64,000 nt of DNA, taken from the IMG/VR virus record IMGVR_UViG_3300044981_000078, positions 37,669-101,668 of that record, one strand, 5' to 3'. Origin of the DNA: a virus. The notes under the pieces were generated by a model that was given only the letters and a program-made list of their open reading frames with translations, did not search any database and was not told where the DNA came from. The position numbers and the translations under genes were made by a program. Of the stretch, positions 16,880 to 26,825 are shown piece by piece; the stretch's first letter is position 1, and every line of letters starts with the position of its first letter.

Positions 16880-17447
16880 AGTTGGGGAGAACCTAGAAAG
16901 GGGCATGATAAGCAAAATTCGGGTCCACACCTGCGGAAACCAACGGTATGAAGGGTATATTACGGAGAAATGCAGGTGCCGCAAGTATGTGACCCAAGAG
17001 AAGGCAGAGCAGCTTAAGAACGACGGCTACGCGGCTCATGTTATAACATCTATTAAGACCATAGATGTAGAAGACATATGTTCGATGTGCGAAGGCAACG
17101 ACCGGTTAAAGAAGTCTTGTAAGGCTTGTGGGAAAACCGGAATAGAGACTAAGAAGAGAAACCTAATTGAATACGGCGAAGATATCTATATGCGTCCTAT
17201 CCTCAGAACACCGAGGACCGCGACTATCGAGAAAAACCATCTCGAATACGCCTATGTCAAGTTGGATAAGGATGCCGCAAGAAGAATAGAACTATATCAC
17301 GAATCTGATCAATCGGCGCTAGGAGATTTAGGCGCTGAAATTAGGAATCCAGTGACCGGAGAAGTTGTACGTAAGGGCACCCCGGAGCCTAAAAACGATC
17401 CGGCTAAGGGCCAGGGTCGAGATCACGACTACGGAAGGGCGATATGA
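16851..17447 (+). CDS. hypothetical protein with DnaJ-type CxxCxG zinc motif (start uncertain)
   Basis: CSMCEG...CKACGKTG. Confidence 0.55.
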   Translation: MGRLVKSTFEVGENLERGMISKIRVHTCGNQRYEGYITEKCRCRKYVTQEKAEQLKNDGYAAHVITSIKTIDVEDICSMCEGNDRLKKSCKACGKTGIETKKRNLIEYGEDIYMRPILRTPRTATIEKNHLEYAYVKLDKDAARRIELYHESDQSALGDLGAEIRNPVTGEVVRKGTPEPKNDPAKGQGRDHDYGRAI

Positions 17448-17818
17448 CCGAACAAAACTCACCGACTCCCGAGGGACAGGCGGCGGCAGAGCAGGCGTTG
17501 CAAGAGATTAGAGATCGATCTTTTAGCGGACGAAACCCCCACTTGGGAAAGATGGTGAACTGTCCGTTCTGTAATTTGCGCCACCGGCAGAATGAGCGTA
17601 AGTGCGAACAAAAGTTCGCGGAAGAAGACGGGATTGTTTACGGTGCCCTTGTTCCGCCTGAAGGCCTGACCCAACTAACCAAGAGACAAATTTTTGGGGC
17701 TCGTGCATTCGCAAAGAAGCGACAGCGCCCTCGTAATAAACCGAAGAAGCCGATGACAAAGTGGGCTAGGGTTTTAAAAGCCGCCGCTGAGAAGAGGAAG
17801 AATGCTAAAACAGTTTAG
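17444..17818 (+). CDS. hypothetical basic Zn-finger protein
   Basis: CPFC..H..C; coupled ORF. Confidence 0.5.
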   Translation: MTEQNSPTPEGQAAAEQALQEIRDRSFSGRNPHLGKMVNCPFCNLRHRQNERKCEQKFAEEDGIVYGALVPPEGLTQLTKRQIFGARAFAKKRQRPRNKPKKPMTKWARVLKAAAEKRKNAKTV

Positions 17819-18395
17819 AGACTGGGTATATCTGTTCGTAACTGAGCGTTTACTCAAGGATGAGTTTTTCATTTCTAGGCTGGATAGCGCTCTCAAACAG
17901 CACAACAAACAACTGGAAGTTTTGAAGGAAGCAGCGCGTCGGCTCAAGATAGACGCTCTTCAACGTAAGATGGCTGAAGAGCGTATCGCAGAGATAAAGA
18001 AACTTCAGGATAGTTGCTCGCATCTTAAGGGTGGTCGTTTGAGGAGCCCATGCGGTGAAGACTACAATATTTGGATTCACATATTTACAGACAATCACCG
18101 CCGTAGTGTTCGATGCTTAACTTGTAGAAAAGAGTGGACCGGAGATCAACTTAAATCTCCCGAGGTCCAACACATGTTAGCGCATACTACTAATACCCTC
18201 ACCTCATCGGAGTTTAAGATAGGACCGGCGAAAGACCAAGAATTTCCCGGTGGTAATGCTCCAATGACAGAAGAGGAAGAGATTGCAAATAATCCGTTAT
18301 GGCCCTTTGCAAGCCGAATATATGTTCAATGGTGGGACAAAATGTTAAAGAAACTTCGTAAAAAGAAACGCTTGACAAACAACAGGCGTGCATGA
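17802..18395 (+). CDS. Zn-binding protein, paralog of 62834-63373
   Basis: CxHxKGG...HxFTDN...RCxxC...TNTxxSSE shared with the late gene. Confidence 0.65.
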   Translation: MLKQFRDWVYLFVTERLLKDEFFISRLDSALKQHNKQLEVLKEAARRLKIDALQRKMAEERIAEIKKLQDSCSHLKGGRLRSPCGEDYNIWIHIFTDNHRRSVRCLTCRKEWTGDQLKSPEVQHMLAHTTNTLTSSEFKIGPAKDQEFPGGNAPMTEEEEIANNPLWPFASRIYVQWWDKMLKKLRKKKRLTNNRRA

Positions 18396-18401
18396 CATAT
18401 T
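18372..18401 (+). promoter_or_regulatory. sigma70-type promoter
   Basis: TTGACA-18 nt-(TGA)CATATT. Confidence 0.5.
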
Positions 18402-18447
18402 TAACTTGTGAGAGGCACCGTCAGCCGAGAATGACGCTAACAGGGGA

Positions 18448-18930
18448 TTGAAAATGAAAAAGTTGCTTTCAGCAGTTCTGTTTGTTCTTGCATTTGCAAT
18501 TGGGGCTTCGGCTCAAACAACTCAACAGAGTGTTGACTATCCGTTTTTCAACGCGGGGGATCACAGTCAGGTCACGTTTTATTTTGGTCACTTGCCGAAC
18601 GGTGAGCCCGGCACTACCGCGCTTATCATTCAGTGCGCGTTTAACCGTGCTGAATTGATTACCAATTTCGATGTGTACGGTCAGCAAATGGGATCACAGT
18701 TTTTTGCTGTTACCTGTTCACATGTGGGGCCAACTTGGGTCAATGGTCAGAGGACCGACACTTACACTCTTAACGCAACGCCACTTGCCGAATCTCTCGT
18801 TATGTACGGGACCAACGAAAATGGCAATCCTGTGACATCAAATCTCAATCTAATCGTCAACAGCGCAACATGGACTGTTACCGGCACCCGTGGGGCGAAG
18901 TCTAGCGGCGGGGCAGAGATTACTGACTGA
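18448..18930 (+). CDS. secreted protein
   Basis: Signal peptide KKLLSAVLFVLAFAIGASA; beta-rich mature part. Confidence 0.65.
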   Translation: MKMKKLLSAVLFVLAFAIGASAQTTQQSVDYPFFNAGDHSQVTFYFGHLPNGEPGTTALIIQCAFNRAELITNFDVYGQQMGSQFFAVTCSHVGPTWVNGQRTDTYTLNATPLAESLVMYGTNENGNPVTSNLNLIVNSATWTVTGTRGAKSSGGAEITD

Positions 18931-18983
18931 GTCTTCTCCCTAGCCCTCGCGCGGAGGGACAGGGTGACCGCTCAGGAGGTAAG

Positions 18984-19853
18984 ATGGATTTAATTATTAC
19001 ACATCAGAATTGTCCCGATGGTTGGGCAGCGGCGTATGTCGCAAAATTACGGTATCCAGAAGCCAAAATATTAACTCAAGACCATGGTCTAGAACCCCCA
19101 TATAATGACGTTACTGGCAAAAATGTTTTGGTGGTGGATTTCTCGTGGCGAACCCGAGAACAGAATGACAAGCTCGCCTTATTAGCAAAATCATTCAAGA
19201 TTCTGGATCATCACAAGAGCGCCAAAGAAGTTCTCGATGGAGCTAGTTATGCCGTATTCGATATGGAAAGGTCCGGCGCGGGACTCGCGTGGGACTATTT
19301 ATACGGGAAAGATGCGCCGATAGAAAATAACCCCCGTAACAGACCGCGTCCTTGGTTTATTGATTATGTAGAGGATCGCGATCTGTGGCGTCACGCGTTA
19401 CCGGAGTCCGAGGCGGTCAATGGCTTCATAATGACATTCGCGTACGAGATTCAAGCCTGGGACCAGATGATAAAGACCGACCTCCGAGACGCTATTACAA
19501 ACGGAAAGGCGGTTCAGCTTGAGATTAATAAGTATGTTCGTGAGATTATAAAACAGACTCAGGTCGGATCGCTGAATGTCCTTGATAAGAAATATTCTGT
19601 CGGACTTGTAAATGCTCCGTATTTGCACATTAGTGATGTTGGTAACGCTCTTGCTCATCGTTATGATATTGGAATGGGCTGGTTCGAAAGGGTTGACGGC
19701 GTCATTCAATTTTCAATGCGGTCTGTTGATGACATAGATGTAGCAAATATAGCGAAACAATTTAATGGGGGCGGGCACCAACACGCCGCCGGGTTCCAAT
19801 TGTCGTTGGCAGACGGACGTAAATTAGTCGATCAAATTCTAGGACGATCATGA
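18984..19853 (+). CDS. DHH/DHHA1 phosphoesterase
   Basis: HQNCPDG, VVDFS, LDHHKS, DRDLW, SMRS, GGGHQHAAGF. Confidence 0.9.
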   Translation: MDLIITHQNCPDGWAAAYVAKLRYPEAKILTQDHGLEPPYNDVTGKNVLVVDFSWRTREQNDKLALLAKSFKILDHHKSAKEVLDGASYAVFDMERSGAGLAWDYLYGKDAPIENNPRNRPRPWFIDYVEDRDLWRHALPESEAVNGFIMTFAYEIQAWDQMIKTDLRDAITNGKAVQLEINKYVREIIKQTQVGSLNVLDKKYSVGLVNAPYLHISDVGNALAHRYDIGMGWFERVDGVIQFSMRSVDDIDVANIAKQFNGGGHQHAAGFQLSLADGRKLVDQILGRS

Positions 19854-20143
19854 GAACACAAACCACCGTGTTACCGAATGAATTTAAGTACGATCACAAG
19901 ACTAAAACCTTAGTTGTTGAGTACACAGACGGCTCTCAGATCAAGTATTTTGACATCGAGCCGACATCTATATTCTTGTTGAACGGGAACTATCACCGCT
20001 TTGCGGACTTCATTCAATATGTTGAGACATTTAGTCCTAGGTCAGAGTTAGTTCGTAAGCCGACAAAGCGTACCGGTACAATCATGCAGGAAGAGCCGGA
20101 CACTAGAGAAACAAATCCGAACTGGAAGCCTAAAAAGACTTGA
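19850..20143 (+). CDS. KTSC-domain-like protein
   Basis: YDHKTKTLVVEYTDGSQIKYFDI resembles the KTSC core YDxxxxxLxVxFxxGxxYxY. Confidence 0.55.
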   Translation: MRTQTTVLPNEFKYDHKTKTLVVEYTDGSQIKYFDIEPTSIFLLNGNYHRFADFIQYVETFSPRSELVRKPTKRTGTIMQEEPDTRETNPNWKPKKT

Positions 20144-20169
20144 CAGTGATCTAGGATTGTGGTATTAAT
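20140..20169 (+). promoter_or_regulatory. sigma70 promoter for the Y RNA-Ro60 unit
   Basis: TTGACA-17 nt-(TGG)TATTAAT immediately upstream of the Y RNA 5' end. Confidence 0.7.
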
Positions 20170-20177
20170 AGTTTGAA

Positions 20178-20310
20178 TGCGGGTGCCGTAGATTAGGGTT
20201 ACTTCTCCTGCTAAGAGTGGAGTCGTGGGTTCGAGCCCCACTCCTACGCCAACGGCGAGGATAGCTTAGTGGTAAAGCGCCAACGTTCCTTAGTCGCCTG
20301 ATGCCCCGCA
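20178..20310 (+). ncRNA. yrlA: YrlA-like Y RNA (permuted tRNA mimic)
   Basis: Terminal stem TGCGGG/CCCGCA; T arm GTGGG-TTCGAGC-CCCAC precedes a closed acceptor hairpin and then the D arm GCTT-AGTGGTA-AAGC; directly upstream of Ro60. Confidence 0.88.
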
Positions 20311-20318
20311 AATTTTTG

Positions 20319-20406
20319 ATCGCAGATGCCGTTAGAGACGGGTTACTTCTTACTGAACAAGAGAGGGATAAAATCCCATATCCTATTTCGCTTGATGCTC
20401 TGCGAT
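20319..20406 (+). ncRNA. second, short Y RNA without a tRNA module
   Basis: Terminal stem ATCGCAGA/TCTGCGAT; shares TGCCGT..AGA..GGGTTACTTC and TCGCYTGATGC with the first Y RNA. Confidence 0.8.
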
Positions 20407-20423
20407 AATCTTTTGGAGGAACA

Positions 20424-21827
20424 ATGAAAACAAATACGAAGACCTTACCGACTCCGAAGTTCACACACGAGGGCGCTCGTGCGTACAATACGACTGCCGA
20501 ACAGGAACTGCGCCGGTCAGTTATGGCCTGCATGCTGTGGGAGGACACCTTCTATGAAGATGGTGTGGATATCGCTGATCGTGTCAGTTCGCTCGTAGCC
20601 AAGGTCGCTCCGGAGAAAGTTTCCGAGATCGCAATCGAGGCCCGGGTCAAGCAGAAGCTGCGTCATGTGCCTCTGTTTCTCGCTGTAGCGATGGCAAAGC
20701 TGCCGACTCACAAGCATGTTGTAGCGGATACTGTCGCTGAGATCATCCAGCGCCCGGACGAGCTTGCAGAGATTCTCGCTATCTATTCTAAGGACCGTAC
20801 CGGAAGCAAGAAGCTGAACAAGCTGTCAAAGCAGCTTCAATACGGTATCGCTCGTGCGTTCACAAAGTTCAACGAATACAGCTTGGCAAAGTATAATCAG
20901 GACAAGGATGTCAAGCTCCGCGACGTTCTATTTTTGACTCACCCTACACCGGTAGACGACGCTCAGGCCGATCTGTGGAAGCGACTGATTGATGGAAAGT
21001 TGGACACCCCGGACACCTGGGAGGTCGCAATATCTGCTGCGAAGGGCAACAAGGACCTGACCCGCGACACCTGGGACCGTCTGTTGAAAGAGGGCAAGCT
21101 GGGCGCACTGGCGCTCCTTCGCAATTTGCGAAATATGGATGAAGCCGGGGTACACACCGATCTTATCCGTAATTCACTCTTAAACGCCAATACCGAACGC
21201 GTACTCCCGTTTCGTTTTGTTGCAGCCGCACACGCCGCCCCGAAGTTTGAGGGCGAACTGGACCAATTACTTATCAAAACATCCGAAAAGCTCCCTAAGC
21301 TTTCGGGAAAAACTATCCTGATTGTTGACGTTTCCGGATCGATGTACAGAGCCGGAAATATCAGCAAGCGATCAGATATGACCAGGTTGGAGGCAGCCGG
21401 AGCGCTGGCGGCTATCGCTCGCGAGTCTTGTGAAAGTGTTGCAATCTACGCGACCGCAGGCGACGATTACGCTCGCAAGCATAAGACCGGTCTTGTTCCC
21501 GCACGCCGAGGAATGGCGTTAATTGAGAAATTTACAGCGCGTGGATTCGTTTTAGAGTTAGGCGGAGGGGGAATTTTCTTGAAGCAGGTCCTTGACTATG
21601 TCTACGAGAAGGAAAAGACAGCCGACCGAATCATTGTATTCACAGACGAACAGGATTGTGACTTGAAGTGCAATCCGGCAACCGCCAACGCTTTCGGAAA
21701 GCGTAATTACCTGGTCAACATCTCAAACGAGCGAAACGGTATCGGCTATAAGCCGAACTGGATTCATATCGATGGGTTCTCGGAGGCTATCCTTCAATAC
21801 ATTGCAGCAACGGAGCAGAATGGTTAA
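20424..21827 (+). CDS. rsr: Ro60-related TROVE/vWA RNA-binding protein
   Basis: HEGA, FYEDG, FNEYSLAKY, TPDTWE, ALLRNLRN, LPFRF, DVSGSM (MIDAS), TDEQ. Confidence 0.95.
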   Translation: MKTNTKTLPTPKFTHEGARAYNTTAEQELRRSVMACMLWEDTFYEDGVDIADRVSSLVAKVAPEKVSEIAIEARVKQKLRHVPLFLAVAMAKLPTHKHVVADTVAEIIQRPDELAEILAIYSKDRTGSKKLNKLSKQLQYGIARAFTKFNEYSLAKYNQDKDVKLRDVLFLTHPTPVDDAQADLWKRLIDGKLDTPDTWEVAISAAKGNKDLTRDTWDRLLKEGKLGALALLRNLRNMDEAGVHTDLIRNSLLNANTERVLPFRFVAAAHAAPKFEGELDQLLIKTSEKLPKLSGKTILIVDVSGSMYRAGNISKRSDMTRLEAAGALAAIARESCESVAIYATAGDDYARKHKTGLVPARRGMALIEKFTARGFVLELGGGGIFLKQVLDYVYEKEKTADRIIVFTDEQDCDLKCNPATANAFGKRNYLVNISNERNGIGYKPNWIHIDGFSEAILQYIAATEQNG

Positions 21828-22020
21828 AGAAACTAATACAGATGAACCTAGTTTCATTTATGATTTAGTTCGTGAAGACGGAAGACTGGAGCGAGTGTGT
21901 AAACATGGCATCGGTCATACTGTAGGTCATACAAATCCTAAAATGTTAAAAGACAGATATATCTGGGTCCACGGCTGTGACGGATGCTGTGCTACTTATG
22001 AAGTAATGGAGCCCGAGTGA
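21820..22020 (+). CDS. small Cys/His protein
   Basis: ERVCKHGIGH...HGCDGCC. Confidence 0.6.
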   Translation: MVKETNTDEPSFIYDLVREDGRLERVCKHGIGHTVGHTNPKMLKDRYIWVHGCDGCCATYEVMEPE

Positions 22021-22403
22021 AGACACAGTATCTTGTCGGACGATATAAACTAGGATTCAAGTATGTTCGACTAATTGTCGATACAACGACAGCCAATGGT
22101 TCGGTCGATCTAGTTCCCGACGATAAAGAAACTACCAAGATAGTTATTGGTATAGACTCTCCGTGGAGTGAATCATTATCAGTTTTTCTTCATGAGGTGT
22201 ACGAAGGAACCCTAATAGACTTGCACACTCGGTATAAAGCTAGGCCCAGCTACTCTGATGAAAGCTCCGATTTTATTTTCGTAGTCTCCCATAACCAACT
22301 ATCGGAGGCGCACGAGCGGGTTGGGGTATTCTTAGCGGAGAGCCTTCCGGATTTTACTAAGGCATATAAAAAGTATTCGTCATTTAAGGAAACCAATGAG
22401 TAA
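22017..22403 (+). CDS. hypothetical protein (degenerate zincin-like)
   Basis: VFLHEVYE. Confidence 0.5.
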   Translation: MKTQYLVGRYKLGFKYVRLIVDTTTANGSVDLVPDDKETTKIVIGIDSPWSESLSVFLHEVYEGTLIDLHTRYKARPSYSDESSDFIFVVSHNQLSEAHERVGVFLAESLPDFTKAYKKYSSFKETNE

Positions 22404-22983
22404 GGTTTGGCTGATATCAGACACTCACCTGAAGCATCAAAAGATAGCGACCTACTGTCGCCGTCCTGAGAACTTCACCGAACTAATAGATCAAAATGTC
22501 AAGAGGCTCGTAAAGCCCGAGGACACCCTGGTCCATCTCGGTGATGTCGGCATAGATAGGGCCGAGGGTCCGGACGGATTCATGAAGTATGTTCGCGAGT
22601 GGCCCGGTAAGAAGGTGCTCGTACGTGGCAATCACGATCAGCACGGTTGCGCTTGGTATATAGATCATGGATTTGATTTTGCATGTGATGCTATGATATT
22701 TCGTTCGGTGTGGTTGACCCATAAGCCTTGGTTGGGAGAGCTACCCGAAGGTACGCATATTAATGTCCACGGTCACTTACATAATTGTTGGGATGGCTTC
22801 TTACCGGACGATCCGGAAAAAGAGCAAGAAGAGTTTGTTGTCGCTGCTCAGACCGGCAAATTACTTCGACCGTGGCACCGGTTGTTTGCAATAGAATATA
22901 CCGGTTACGCGCCAGTTTGCTTTGATAAGTTTGTTGCAAAACCTGATAAGTATCAGGCAAGAGGTCCAAAGAAAAATGGCTAA
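22396..22983 (+). CDS. calcineurin-like metallophosphoesterase
   Basis: SDTH, HLGD, RGNHD, LTHKP, VHGHLH. Confidence 0.9.
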   Translation: MSKVWLISDTHLKHQKIATYCRRPENFTELIDQNVKRLVKPEDTLVHLGDVGIDRAEGPDGFMKYVREWPGKKVLVRGNHDQHGCAWYIDHGFDFACDAMIFRSVWLTHKPWLGELPEGTHINVHGHLHNCWDGFLPDDPEKEQEEFVVAAQTGKLLRPWHRLFAIEYTGYAPVCFDKFVAKPDKYQARGPKKNG

Positions 22984-23518
22984 TTTCGAAAGTATCGTGC
23001 AGTGGCTGCTTTATATTGAAGACGATAAAAAGACCCCAGGAAAAATTGTTGATTTACATGACGGTGTGGGCTTGACTCGTCTCGGATTGACCCAACGATG
23101 GCACCAGGCCGACCTCCCGCTGTCCTTCTTTTCTACGATGCCTTTTGCAGAAGCGGTCACATGTGCGAAGGCTGTCTATAAGAAGCAATATTGGACCAGT
23201 CTATGCGGAGACCAGATTGAGCACGATCAGGTTGCGGCCCCGCTTCTGAGCTTTGCGGTTAATGACACAGTTAGAACTGCTGTTAAGACCCTCCAGAGCG
23301 TTCTCGGAATAACAGAAGACGGGAGTTTAGGTCCTAAGACCCTGGCCGAACTGAACTCGAAGGACCCGGACATTGTTGCCAAGCTGTTTCGAGCAGAGTG
23401 GATTGACTTCTATAAACGAGATATCATGCTCAATCCGGGCAAAGCAGAATTTCTGAACGGCTGGCTCAACCGCGTTAATTTTTCTTATCCTAATCCGCTA
23501 GTGCCGAGTATATACTAA
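22976..23518 (+). CDS. GH108-like lysozyme/endolysin with peptidoglycan-binding C-terminus
   Basis: TRLG, YKKQYW, FAVN, LQSVLG..DGSLGPKTL, FLNGWLNR. Confidence 0.8.
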   Translation: MANFESIVQWLLYIEDDKKTPGKIVDLHDGVGLTRLGLTQRWHQADLPLSFFSTMPFAEAVTCAKAVYKKQYWTSLCGDQIEHDQVAAPLLSFAVNDTVRTAVKTLQSVLGITEDGSLGPKTLAELNSKDPDIVAKLFRAEWIDFYKRDIMLNPGKAEFLNGWLNRVNFSYPNPLVPSIY

Positions 23519-23802
23519 TGACTGTTGAAGACCCGAAATTTGAGTGGAGTTGTCCGAGATTAGGATGTAAGAAACAGATTATCGCGTATACTGAACGCGG
23601 CATGAACCTCCTGGCGGAAGAGCACATCTATCAACATACTAAGGAAGATCACGCAAACAATGTCAAGCCTAAGACTGACTCGATCCAGGTCTATAAGCCG
23701 AAGGACTACGACACCTTGCGGTTGACTCGCGCTGATATAGATTTTTTGAAGACTAGAATGATCGCAATAGACGACAAGATGGTCAGGGAAGATAATGAGT
23801 GA
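23518..23802 (+). CDS. hypothetical C2H2-like protein
   Basis: CPRLGC...H..H; coupled ORF. Confidence 0.5.
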   Translation: MTVEDPKFEWSCPRLGCKKQIIAYTERGMNLLAEEHIYQHTKEDHANNVKPKTDSIQVYKPKDYDTLRLTRADIDFLKTRMIAIDDKMVREDNE

Positions 23803-24082
23803 TCAAGAGCTAGATATTCATTTTGCTATAGGCTTTGTCCGCGAGTGGCTGCGTACAGCCCCGGAGCAGGTCATTCAACATCTTGATGAGATAATTTCCG
23901 GAGTTGACTACTATCGTCAAAAATATAATACACTGGACGAAGACTATCAGATACTCAATAAACGATACAACGATTTGACCGCGCTGTCCGCTGGGTATCT
24001 GCAGATGATCCAAGAACAGAAGTCTCAGATCGATCAGTTGTTAATAGATTCTCAGAGAGACTTACATCATGAAAGAGAATAA
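23795..24082 (+). CDS. hypothetical coiled-coil protein
   Basis: Coupled ORF. Confidence 0.5.
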   Translation: MSDQELDIHFAIGFVREWLRTAPEQVIQHLDEIISGVDYYRQKYNTLDEDYQILNKRYNDLTALSAGYLQMIQEQKSQIDQLLIDSQRDLHHERE

Positions 24083-24272
24083 CATGAAAAAGAAACAAAA
24101 ATTAGAACTATGTCAAAAACTAGATTGGGAAGGTGGTTTCGAAGCCTTCATTACTTATTCTGACTTTCCTGAAATAACGGATGAAAAATTTCGAGGGCTA
24201 GTAGACGCCTATAAGCTGGCTTATCAAAACCTCTCAAAATACATTGGCTGGGATACGTTCGAACCAGAATGA
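24069..24272 (+). CDS. hypothetical protein
   Basis: Coupled ORF. Confidence 0.5.
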   Translation: MKENNMKKKQKLELCQKLDWEGGFEAFITYSDFPEITDEKFRGLVDAYKLAYQNLSKYIGWDTFEPE

Positions 24273-24748
24273 AAATTTCGTGGAGCGAACAAGAGAATTG
24301 GTTTCAGGTCGAACTAGGAGAGCCCTGGCGCGATAACATGGAACTAGTTCGTTTGGTCGGCTTCAAGACCACTGGCCCGCCTGATTGGATTTGGCACACC
24401 TCTAAAGCAGCAATCCTGAACAAACTTCGCAGTAAATCGCAGTCACTGGTTATCACAGAACTCGCCTTCGAAAAGTATAAACTACTCAACGAACAAGAAC
24501 AATCTAAAATTGAGCTTAAGAAGAGATTCTTAAAAGCCAAAACATTGGCTGCGCGAGAAATAAACTCTAACAATTGGAAAGAGTATTTTGATGAACAAAC
24601 TGGGGTCATGTGTAAGATAGTCGAGCCGGTCACAGATAAATTTGTATGGAAATATGAGCCGCCACCCCCGCCGGGGTTGCGTTGCTTTATGTGCGGGCAG
24701 CCGTTATATTGTTTCGATCTGTCGGATATTTGTACATGGTGCGGTTAA
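24269..24748 (+). CDS. hypothetical protein with C-terminal Zn ribbon
   Basis: CFMCG...CTWCG. Confidence 0.55.
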   Translation: MKISWSEQENWFQVELGEPWRDNMELVRLVGFKTTGPPDWIWHTSKAAILNKLRSKSQSLVITELAFEKYKLLNEQEQSKIELKKRFLKAKTLAAREINSNNWKEYFDEQTGVMCKIVEPVTDKFVWKYEPPPPPGLRCFMCGQPLYCFDLSDICTWCG

Positions 24749-24758
24749 GGGAGATAAA

Positions 24759-24926
24759 ATGAAACGTTTGTGTGTATTTTATGATTCACCTAGTGGAAAA
24801 ACAGCGCGGAATTGGCTGGACAAGCCCATTCAATGGATCGTCTGTAAGAAGTGTCAAAAACTGTTGGCAAGGGGTGAGACTATCTATTCTTCGCTCTCCA
24901 AAGTATTTTCTAACTACGCAGATTAA
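24759..24926 (+). CDS. small hypothetical protein
   Basis: ATG after GGGAG; its stop lies within the IS target duplication. Confidence 0.45.
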   Translation: MKRLCVFYDSPSGKTARNWLDKPIQWIVCKKCQKLLARGETIYSSLSKVFSNYAD

Positions 24927-24979
24927 AATAGGGGAATTATCCACTTGACTCCCTAACCCAAATTTGGTAGTATTTGGGT

Positions 24980-25906
24980 ATGAGCAAAAGCACAGTGAGC
25001 ACCTTCCAACTGTTCGAGAAGTGGCCGACTGAAGAGTCCGCAAGACTCTACATTGAGAAGCGACTATGGTCGAACGGCCCTGTATGCCCACGCTGTAAGG
25101 CTACAGAGCGCATTACGGCCCGCAAAGGCGGCTTCTACCGTTGTAACCCATGTAAATGGGACTTCACGGTTAGAACAGGCACTATCTTCGGTCGTTCGCA
25201 CGTCCCGCTGCATAAGTGGTTGTACGCAATGTACTTGCTTGTGACTTCGCGGAAGGGAATTTCATCTCTGCAAATGTCTAAAGAAATTGGAGTTAAGCAG
25301 CATACCGCGTGGTTCATATTACAGCGGTTGCGAGAAGCCTGCGGCGCGGAAGTCAAGATGCTTCAAGGGATTGTCGAAGTGGACGAAACCTTTATTACAG
25401 GCAAAGAACAGAATCGCCATATGTATGACCGTATCCATGACCCCCGAGAGCGATCAGAGAAGGCAATCGTAGTCGGGATGCGAGAACGTGGCGGGAATAC
25501 CGTTGCGACGGTAGTTCAGAGCACGGGCGGTTTGGCTCTCCGCGCCGAAATACACAAGCATGTGGTATCAGGCACTAGAGTTATGACCGACGATTACGGC
25601 AGTTACACGGCGCTCCCGAGAGAAGGGTTCAAGCACGAGAGCGTAAAGCATGTCACAGGAGAATATGTCCGTGGCGACGTTCACACTAATTCAATTGAAT
25701 CAGTATGGGCTGTTCTAAAGCGCGGGGTACACGGGACGTTTCACCATGTCAGCAAGAAACACCTGAATCGATATGTTTCCGAGTTTACTTTTCGTCTAAA
25801 TGACGGTAAGGTTCAGCGCCACACTCTTGATAGACTCGACAGTCTGATATCCAATGTGGTAGGGAAACGAGTTACATACGAAGAAATAATCTCAGAAAAG
25901 TCTTGA
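24980..25906 (+). CDS. IS1595-family (ISXO2-like) DDE transposase
   Basis: CPRC..CNPC Zn ribbon, GTIF, KGISS, VEVDETF, MTDD, HTNSIESVW, YVSEFTFR. Confidence 0.95.
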   Translation: MSKSTVSTFQLFEKWPTEESARLYIEKRLWSNGPVCPRCKATERITARKGGFYRCNPCKWDFTVRTGTIFGRSHVPLHKWLYAMYLLVTSRKGISSLQMSKEIGVKQHTAWFILQRLREACGAEVKMLQGIVEVDETFITGKEQNRHMYDRIHDPRERSEKAIVVGMRERGGNTVATVVQSTGGLALRAEIHKHVVSGTRVMTDDYGSYTALPREGFKHESVKHVTGEYVRGDVHTNSIESVWAVLKRGVHGTFHHVSKKHLNRYVSEFTFRLNDGKVQRHTLDRLDSLISNVVGKRVTYEEIISEKS

Positions 25907-25932
25907 CAAACTCTTCTGTTTTTTGTTAGACT
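25903..25932 (+). promoter_or_regulatory. internal sigma70 promoter driving the IS cargo
   Basis: TTGACA-18 nt-(TGT)TAGACT overlapping the transposase stop. Confidence 0.65.
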
Positions 25933-26024
25933 GTTCTGGTAGCAAGTTGAATGGTGGATTCGTCGCCCACTGCAAATCGACGATAAGGCAGACGTAAAAG
26001 AAAGCAAACCCGTCGGCTACATAT

Positions 26025-26100
26025 GCGGAGGTAGTTTAATGGTAGAACGATCTGTTAACCAACAGGTAGGTGGCGGTTCAAATCCGACCTCTCCGCTCCA
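26025..26100 (+). tRNA. atypical tRNA-Gly-like RNA (8-nt anticodon loop, bulged T stem)
   Basis: Acceptor GCGGAGG/TCTCCGC, U73, encoded CCA; D arm GTTT-AATGGTA-GAAC; anticodon stem ATCTG/CAGGT with loop TTAACCAA; T loop TTCAAAT. Confidence 0.85.
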
Positions 26101-26210
26101 AGAATCTCACGACGAGTGCAAATATCTCGGAAACGATTTATGGGATTGCGGCCACATTGACAATTCTATTGATGGCTGTGACTGTCATGTTTGCGCGGCG
26201 GAGTTGATAA

Positions 26211-26753
26211 ATGCCCGACCAATCGCTTAGTAAAACTCCCTTCTGCCGTCTCCTGTCCGCCGAAGAATCAAACAAAATGCTTAATGCGTGGCACTATCTA
26301 GGCGAAGTCAGGGGAATATTGTTTTCTGTCGGCCACGAAGAAGGTTGCTGTGTTTTCACCAACTGTCGCTCTCGGGTGTATGAAAAGAAGCATCCGGGAG
26401 TTGTTGAGTTGTCCAGAATGGTAGGAATGCCGGGTCATAAATGGGCGATGTCTTCTTTGATGGCTCAAGCCACTCGGGAATGCAAAAAGCGCGGCTACAC
26501 GGAAATAATCACCTACGCAGACCCGTGGAATAATAACACAGGTAAAGTCTATCTTGCGGCGGGCTGGAAAGCGGCGGGCAGCACCGGGCAGGATATGGTC
26601 TACCTTCTCGATGGTGAGCGCATCGCTCGTAGAACGCTTTATGACCGTCATGGAACGCAGTCCAGAAAGAAAATGAAAGAAATCTACGGTGACCGCCTAC
26701 AATTTGAAATTGCACCCCCTAAACCAATTTTCATAAAAGCATTGGTTTCTTAG
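26211..26753 (+). CDS. Mom-family (GNAT-fold) adenine-modifying enzyme
   Basis: WHYLG, ELSRM, ITYADP, GKVYLAAGW and C-terminal KPIF motifs typical of Mom-like proteins. Confidence 0.8.
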   Translation: MPDQSLSKTPFCRLLSAEESNKMLNAWHYLGEVRGILFSVGHEEGCCVFTNCRSRVYEKKHPGVVELSRMVGMPGHKWAMSSLMAQATRECKKRGYTEIITYADPWNNNTGKVYLAAGWKAAGSTGQDMVYLLDGERIARRTLYDRHGTQSRKKMKEIYGDRLQFEIAPPKPIFIKALVS

Positions 26754-26825
26754 TTTTATGGATACTTATAAAGATTTTATGTGGGATTTACGGGGAGTCA
26801 AGTGGATAATTCCCTAAAATAGTCC

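Follow-up and report, generated by a model that had tools for sequence, protein, structure and literature searches.

The Mom protein of phage Mu uses Gly-tRNAGly as the source of the glycine that it attaches to N6 of dA in double-stranded DNA; it accepts all three tRNAGly isoacceptors of Escherichia coli and rejects Gly-tRNAAla, and its authors proposed that it recognizes the acceptor end (Silva et al., 2026; PMC13219725). That study makes no mention of tRNA genes close to homologues of mom. A mom-associated RNA had been noticed by McMurdie et al. (2011; PMC3146451) in the ssrA-specific genomic islands of Dehalococcoides. There, the initial 150 bp of the mom homologue contain a conserved tRNA-Gly-like locus of 76 bp, which annotation pipelines treat as a "pseudo-tRNA" and to which the authors assigned no function. 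The glycine identity set is listed in a review (PMC9976931), which also reports that the GNAT toxin AtaT2 reads U73 and G71. According to the same review, pairs 49-65 and 51-63 of the T stem allow the non-proteinogenic tRNAGly of Staphylococcus aureus to evade EF-Tu, in agreement with what an initial annotation of the locus described here had stated about them. No paper tying a tRNA-like RNA to the co-substrate of Mom was found in the literature available for searching. The use of a charged tRNA by Mom to modify DNA was reportedly shown only in 2023–2026, and the tRNA is said to have been treated as a scavenged host resource.

The DNA analysed, a stretch of 64,000 nucleotides hereafter called the window, comprises bases 37669–101668 of a viral record of 101,668 bp, estimated to be 98% complete and originating from a soil or peat phage. 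The phage carries 32 canonical tRNA genes, all with an encoded CCA and located in one cluster on the opposite strand, outside the window; tRNA-Gly(UCC) and tRNA-Gly(GCC) are among them. Some of the canonical tRNAs are unusually long (genome G000, 17266–25332), namely tRNA-Pro(UGG) of 88 nt, tRNA-Asn(GUU) of 87 nt and tRNA-Ile(UAU) of 94 nt. A TROVE/Ro60-domain gene is also present in the phage (window positions 20424–21827; Pfam, 2e-19). The thirty-third tRNA, a tRNA-Gly-like RNA gene on the plus strand of the window (26025–26100), is located 38 kb away from the canonical cluster.

This gene belongs to the cargo of an intact IS1595-type transposon, spanning positions 24924–26822 with its target duplications included. 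The element comprises an IS1595-family transposase of 310 aa (24974–25906, plus strand; Pfam DDE_Tnp_IS1595, 6.5e-42, and Zn_ribbon_IS1595), a left terminal inverted repeat (24932–24953, plus strand) preceded by the 8-bp target duplication TAAAATAG (24924–24931), and a right terminal inverted repeat (26793–26814, plus strand), complementary to the left one at 22 of 22 positions and followed by the second copy of TAAAATAG (26815–26822). The cargo consists of a promoter-like site, the tRNA-like gene, a 63-aa ORF and a Mom-family gene. The sigma-70-like promoter (TTGACA, 18 nt, TG-TAGACT; 25903–25932, plus strand), a consensus match only, precedes the tRNA-like gene by about 85 nt. Between this promoter and the start of the Mom gene no terminator-like site was found, and the sole such site on the plus strand, a weak one with 5 pairs, falls within the Mom ORF. 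Locus L015 (334–2110) harbours another IS1595 element, diverged from that of the window, that carries the same cargo; its transposase is 63% identical to the one in the window and its terminal inverted repeats are related. Loci L008 and L009 contain the same cargo and right end with no transposase upstream. The leader located 5' of the window tRNA-like gene (25946–26014) is homologous to the spacer located 3' of its counterpart in L015 (1453–1515), and this homology is suggestive of a rearrangement or of a second, degenerate copy.

The only Mom gene of the phage (26211–26753, plus strand), preceded by the Shine-Dalgarno sequence GGAG 7 nt before its ATG, codes for a Mom-family GNAT of 180 aa (Pfam PF25680, 5.4e-11; PHROG "Mom-like DNA modification protein," 7e-17), which is presumed to be the user of the glycyl-RNA. 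The tRNA-like RNA ends 110 nt upstream of this gene. A single-sequence search of the PDB with the window protein missed Mom; the profile of its relatives matches entry 8bv8, the Mom of phage Mu. The chain in 8bv8 is a delta-10 S124A construct, so its numbering is offset by 9. In the profile alignment to this structure the window protein retains the equivalents of Mu residues H58, Y59, R111, S124, D149 and Y159, and an equivalent of R151 is not evident.

The small ORF of 63 aa (26039–26230, plus strand) has its ATG in the D loop of the tRNA-like gene, with the GGAGG of the acceptor 5' strand 7 nt ahead of it. The frame runs on through the tRNA-like sequence and overlaps the start of the Mom gene by 20 nt. 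Its product, with a tail rich in Cys and His (C-x9-C-x-H-x7-C-x-C-H-x-C), matches no Pfam or PHROG family, and its amino-acid sequence is 95% identical in L008 and L009. The position of this ORF before Mom recalls the com-mom arrangement of phage Mu.

The assignment of the RNA, including its encoded U73-CCA, is based on ARAGORN, Rfam and folding. The transcript can be folded into a cloverleaf with an acceptor stem of 7 bp, formed by GCGGAGG (26025–26031) and UCUCCGC (26090–26096) and ending with a G7.U66 pair, followed by U73 (26097) and the encoded CCA (26098–26100). The D arm (GUUU/GAAC, loop AAUGGUA) is followed by an anticodon arm with the stem AUCUG/CAGGU and an 8-nt loop UUAACCAA (26055–26062), a variable region of 4 nt and a T arm, GGCGG-UUCAAAU-CCG[A]CC, in which the bracketed A at 26087 is unpaired between the third and fourth pairs. 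With 30.9 bits the RNA passes the gathering score of the Rfam tRNA model (29 bits) by a small margin. ARAGORN reported it as tRNA-??? with a four-base anticodon (aacc), in line with the undetermined or pseudogene call that the initial annotation had predicted for tRNA finders. In the minimum-energy fold the anticodon stem gains two U-A pairs, leaving an AACC tetraloop; the two forms of the loop proposed earlier, of 8 nt or of 4 nt after extension of the stem, were thus recovered by ARAGORN and by folding, respectively. Rfam places the extra base elsewhere, producing a G-A mismatch in the T stem and a bulged U in the acceptor stem; the family alignment, where 38 of 42 sequences carry it, identifies the extra base as the T-stem A and agrees with the bulge at 26087 claimed in the initial annotation.

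The window RNA does not have the features of a canonical elongator tRNA-Gly, namely a 7-nt anticodon loop with U33 and a three-base NCC anticodon, and a regular T stem of 5 bp. The bacterial glycine identity set is complete by sequence (G1-C72, C2-G71, G3-C70, U73, C35 and C36), and the GlyRS elements that had been claimed for this RNA, the CC of the loop and the terminal CCA included, are in place. The fold energy of the window RNA alone is no better than that of shuffled sequence (z = -1.35), and its status as more than a chance fold rests on covariation among homologues.

With the Mom-like protein and the T-arm motif as queries, 48 loci from viruses and metagenomes were identified that belong to the window's Mom clade. 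A covariance model, designated R1, was built from 22 upstream tRNA-like sequences, the window RNA among them, the seeds having first been picked by a 7-bp acceptor stem followed by NCCA. R1 matches 26 of these 48 loci, always adjoining the Mom gene, and all 17 loci with a Mom identity of at least 61%. The window RNA scores 85.8 bits with R1, a value that is partly circular since this RNA is one of the 22 seeds, versus 53.7 bits for the canonical tRNA-Gly of the same phage. The difference is similar in genome G001 (70 bits for the Mom-adjacent RNA versus 45 bits for the canonical tRNA-Gly genes), and canonical glycine tRNAs score 40–54 bits with this model. The canonical tRNA-Gly genes of the host genome and of the phage do not exhibit the decoding-loss features of the family. 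One contig (L007, 4013–5262) comprises two tandem units, in each of which a tRNA-like RNA is joined in frame to a separate Mom-family ORF (Pfam, 1e-11 and 1e-28).

A genome-wide scan with a DNA pattern of the bulged T arm returned more than 120 places, nearly all of them due to chance, and one true member, L127. This locus of a Dehalococcoidales MAG has a tRNA-like RNA before a much more typical Mom gene (Pfam, 1e-51) and shows the ParB-Mom neighbourhood of the Dehalococcoides ssrA islands. In the class to which this MAG belongs Mom is encoded by 17 of 301 genomes, and an R1 match lies against the gene in 16 of the 18 strong Mom loci of the Dehalococcoidia class, directly upstream in all cases except L194. 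In total, 42 distinct sequences were collected, all of them located beside or inside Mom-family genes of phage contigs and Dehalococcoidia-class genomes. The window RNA shares the hallmarks of the family (the extra T-stem A, a CC-containing loop of other than 7 nt, acceptor pairs 1–3 and UCCA) and its association with Mom, being located upstream of a PF25680 gene. Neither blastn of the locus against the phage collection nor an exact 37-mer search of viral contigs yielded anything, and no member of the window's Mom clade was detected when species-representative genomes were scanned with a protein pattern. The closest annotated relatives of the window RNA are tRNA-Gly genes, as found for 53 of 53 phage records and one E. 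coli match. The Streptomyces phage tRNA-Gly genes that resemble the window RNA were rejected as candidates, being ordinary members of tRNA clusters.

In the 42 distinct sequences 98.2% of stem cells are paired, versus 75.9% in shuffled alignments and 43–53% when the partners are slid, and double-change cells number 127 versus 32 in the shuffles. The anticodon arm, folded for each sequence separately, is excluded from these pair counts; MAFFT and the covariance model misregister the anticodon arms because their lengths differ. The acceptor-stem component of these statistics is inflated, since the seeds were chosen by a 7-bp stem and the alignment was fitted to the model. Acceptor pairs 4–7 covary freely while pairs 1–3 stay fixed: G1-C72 and C2-G71 are found in 42 of 42 sequences and G3-C70 in 40. 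U73-CCA is present in 41 sequences, and CC is located in or at the anticodon hairpin loop also in 41. The extra T-stem base is found in 38 of 42 and is always A; the two T-stem pairs flanking it covary, with GG, CG, CC, GA, GC or AG on the 5' side. At the anticodon position all members form a hairpin of 4–7 bp with a loop of 3–7 nt, often devoid of U33, and a 7-nt anticodon loop is retained in only 2 of 42 sequences. Random rather than conserved deviations among homologues had been named in advance as an outcome that would speak against a dedicated RNA; the deviations turned out to be conserved (extra A in 38 of 42, CC in 41, 7-nt loop in 2), with covarying stems. As judged from these sequences, the family appears to keep what is needed by bacterial GlyRS and by a GNAT reading the acceptor end, while the needs of the ribosome seem to have been consistently lost.

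Several copies depart from this pattern. Those in L194 (2140–2214), located downstream of mom, and L040 (2418–2492) are near-canonical, with 7-nt loops (UUUCCUU and AUACCAA) and no T-stem bulge, and may be either intermediates or ordinary tRNA-Gly genes. The second tRNA-Gly-like gene of L008 (994–1061), downstream of the cassette, has a promoter of its own and a UCCAA loop; its T stem is regular, with no extra A, and A3 and C70 form a mismatch. The copies in L004 (1687–1761) and L033 (2327–2401) have a 5-nt loop, UACCA, and no bulge; in both loci the tRNA-like sequence is in frame within the 3' part of the gene upstream of mom and, compared with the L002 version of this gene, looks like an insertion.

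In the majority arrangement, the tRNA-like sequence is located in frame within the 5' end of the mom ORF. The proteins of these fused relatives begin with MVEQ...GGSNPTxPLQKTPxCRLL, where the ATG corresponds to the D loop, GGSNPT to the T arm and PLQ to the acceptor 3' strand with UCCA; the conserved KTPxCRLL follows directly after CCA, with no start codon between. The Mom frame is free of stops through the whole RNA in 28 of 31 fused members, versus 6 of 32 canonical phage tRNAs. The absence of stops, together with the conserved fold, indicates that the fused sequences serve both as coding sequence and as folded RNA; their reading frame additionally fixes the extra A. The Dehalococcoidia-class loci have a strong Shine-Dalgarno sequence and an ATG 4–10 nt before G1. 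Judged by an N-terminal peptide signature, which is a rough proxy for hidden tRNA-like sequences, such an arrangement would occur in about 53 of 94 members of the second Mom clade and 26 of 88 of the window's clade, figures too rough to serve as counts.

The in-frame embedding is absent in the window, where a 110-nt spacer and a frame change precede mom, and only the 63-aa ORF reads through the RNA. This ORF corresponds to the surviving ancestral fused, tRNA-encoded N-terminus of Mom in the relatives. Separate copies that do not overlap the start of Mom are found in the window, L011, L014, L016, L020 and as the second copy of L008, some of them 850 nt away from it. Stand-alone copies with their own promoters occur in L014, L016 and the second L008 copy, and in some cases transcription would start at about G1.

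The RNA looks chargeable and non-decoding and lies beside Mom genes in dozens of sequences, which makes it probable that it is the enzyme's own glycine carrier. Taken on sequence evidence, a non-decoding tRNA-Gly derivative acting as a private glycine carrier of the adjacent Mom-family enzyme is the reading we favour with some confidence. A dedicated non-decoding glycyl donor is best in accord with the demonstrated use of Gly-tRNAGly by Mu Mom (PMC13219725), and this finding, together with the conserved deviations and the linkage to Mom, lends support to the dedicated aminoacyl donor suggested in the initial annotation. The promoter at about 25903 would give rise to a joint transcript of the RNA, the small ORF and mom, from which the RNA would be cut out and then charged by the host glycyl-tRNA synthetase via the retained bacterial glycine identity set. 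The rebuilt anticodon hairpin would stop the RNA from reading codons. The extra A, located between T-stem pairs 51-63 and 50-64 in the region setting the affinity for EF-Tu, would keep the charged RNA out of the EF-Tu pool and hence available to Mom. The Mom-like GNAT would then move the glycyl group to adenine N6 in double-stranded DNA, a reaction shown for the Mom of phage Mu only, and the glycyl modification would protect the phage DNA from restriction. As both the RNA and mom are cargo of the intact IS1595-type transposon, the enzyme and its putative donor move together. A private donor is not required in principle, since Mu Mom works with all three ordinary tRNAGly isoacceptors of E. coli, and the canonical tRNA-Gly(UCC) and tRNA-Gly(GCC) already encoded by the phage count against the need for one.

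A further possibility, advanced here tentatively, is that the RNA and the mom message form a bifunctional transcript with a built-in switch, each transcript giving rise either to the enzyme or to the donor. In the majority of relatives the complete tRNA falls, in frame, within the first ~25 codons of mom, and with the ribosome-binding site and ATG located 4–10 nt before G1 or in the D loop, maturation of the donor by RNase P would behead the mRNA. A low ratio of the DNA-modifying enzyme to its glycyl carrier might be set in this way. The window would represent a derived form, in which the tRNA-encoded peptide is now a separate upstream ORF coupled to mom.

The same arrangement is open to another explanation, according to which the RNA is not a donor at all and acts in cis, as a tRNA mimic in the mom mRNA that limits translation of a potentially toxic enzyme, either because its fold hides the ribosome-binding site and start codon or because it is bound by Mom, GlyRS or RNase P. 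The hairpin of Mu mom controlled by Com and the tRNA-like operator of E. coli thrS are analogues of such an element. The Mom frame left open through the RNA in 28 of 31 fused relatives, the good Shine-Dalgarno sequences with an ATG 4–10 nt before G1 or in the D loop, the absence of any other start codon before the KTPxCRLL that follows CCA and, in the window, the GGAGG 7 nt before the D-loop ATG of the ORF overlapping the Mom start are all consistent with it. Excision of the tRNA from a fused transcript, which would remove the start codon and destroy that copy of the mRNA, fits a cis-acting role as well. However, the copies in the window, L011, L014, L016 and L020 and the second copy of L008 are clear of the Mom start, and occlusion of a start site leaves the retention of U73-CCA, acceptor pairs 1–3, the loop CC, which is an anticodon determinant of GlyRS, and the T and D arms unexplained. 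We therefore consider a purely cis-acting mimic rather unlikely; the cis-acting and donor roles are not mutually exclusive, and the former could be additional to the latter.

The remaining explanations take the RNA for a translational tRNA, a relic or a defence factor. The four-base anticodon AACC that ARAGORN placed in an 8-nt loop, and the offset of one base (+1) between the frames of the 63-aa ORF and Mom, would suit a +1 frameshift suppressor or quadruplet decoder, a tRNA-Gly reading GGUU like the sufD-type suppressors. The 8-nt loop is, however, not kept by the relatives, whose loops have 3–7 nt and in L005 are devoid of U33, and pairwise covariation of the outer positions of the loop (U-A in the window; C-G in L013, L005 and L188) favours an extended stem with a small loop. 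Moreover, the bulge falls in the part of the T stem that governs EF-Tu affinity. The 20 nt shared by the small ORF and Mom, within which a shift could fuse the two, contain no GGUU, and a TAA just ahead of the Mom ATG blocks the Mom frame. This role, named as an alternative in the initial annotation, is accordingly most improbable. The other alternative it named, a functionless decaying tRNA pseudogene or leftover of tRNA-targeted integration, would account for the score barely reaching the Rfam tRNA threshold (30.9 versus 29 bits), for the "pseudo-tRNA" label given to the Dehalococcoides relatives by pipelines (PMC3146451) and for the CAA in place of CCA and the acceptor mismatches of L050. 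Decay would do its damage at random, whereas here the same deviations recur and compensatory changes keep the stems paired in 42 diverged copies from two distant Mom clades; a pseudogene is accordingly extremely unlikely. Some phage tRNAs with altered anticodon loops escape host nucleases, and this phage, with its 32 canonical genes, invests heavily in tRNAs, as would be expected if the RNA were a decoy or a resistant replacement for tRNAs attacked by host anticodon nucleases or other tRNA-targeting defences. But a replacement tRNA must decode, which the family is judged unable to do, and the linkage is strictly to Mom genes and not to tRNA clusters, making such a function very unlikely.

Returning to the glycine-carrier reading, the co-occurrence of a widespread and conserved non-decoding tRNA-Gly with Mom in phages, an IS element and genomic islands suggests that in many of these systems the donor is supplied along with the enzyme. 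If true, the RNA would be the first tRNA dedicated to a DNA modification, and it would give a function to the "pseudo-tRNA" observed in Dehalococcoides in 2011. The RNA and Mom would together make up a compact, portable anti-restriction module, and the rebuilt anticodon loop combined with the T-stem bulge would offer a natural test case for the exclusion of a tRNA from translation. The family also draws attention to real RNA genes that are missed or called pseudogenes by tRNA finders and swallowed into the mom ORF by gene callers.

Among the systems known to date, phage Mu is the closest with respect to the enzyme: the window Mom belongs to the same family (PF25680) and keeps most of the key residues, and glycyl-tRNA is the shown co-substrate of Mu Mom. 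Unlike the window phage, Mu brings no tRNA and uses any host isoacceptor, and its mom is controlled through Com. With respect to the RNA, the tRNAGly that serve as Fem donors in S. aureus resemble the RNA proposed here, being extra tRNAGly for a non-ribosomal transfer with T-stem changes that weaken EF-Tu binding. They differ in that these changes are substitutions in pairs 49-65 and 51-63 and not a bulge, in that the acceptor is a peptidoglycan precursor and not DNA, and in being chromosomal, whereas the window RNA is viral and mobile. The S. aureus non-proteinogenic tRNAGly also keep a normal anticodon loop. Like the window RNA, the sufD-type tRNAGly have a tRNA-Gly body whose anticodon loop is enlarged by one base; they have a normal T stem and a true 8-nt loop, while in the window family the loop size is unconserved and the stem probably extends. 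The Dehalococcoides locus resembles the Dehalococcoidia-class loci studied here and belongs to the same RNA family, the extra T-stem A included. In the window, by contrast, the RNA gene stands apart from mom, 110 nt upstream of it, and is found in a phage, within an IS1595 transposon; the separation from mom, the UU-AACC-AA hairpin and the intact IS1595 transposon are what is particular to the window within the family.
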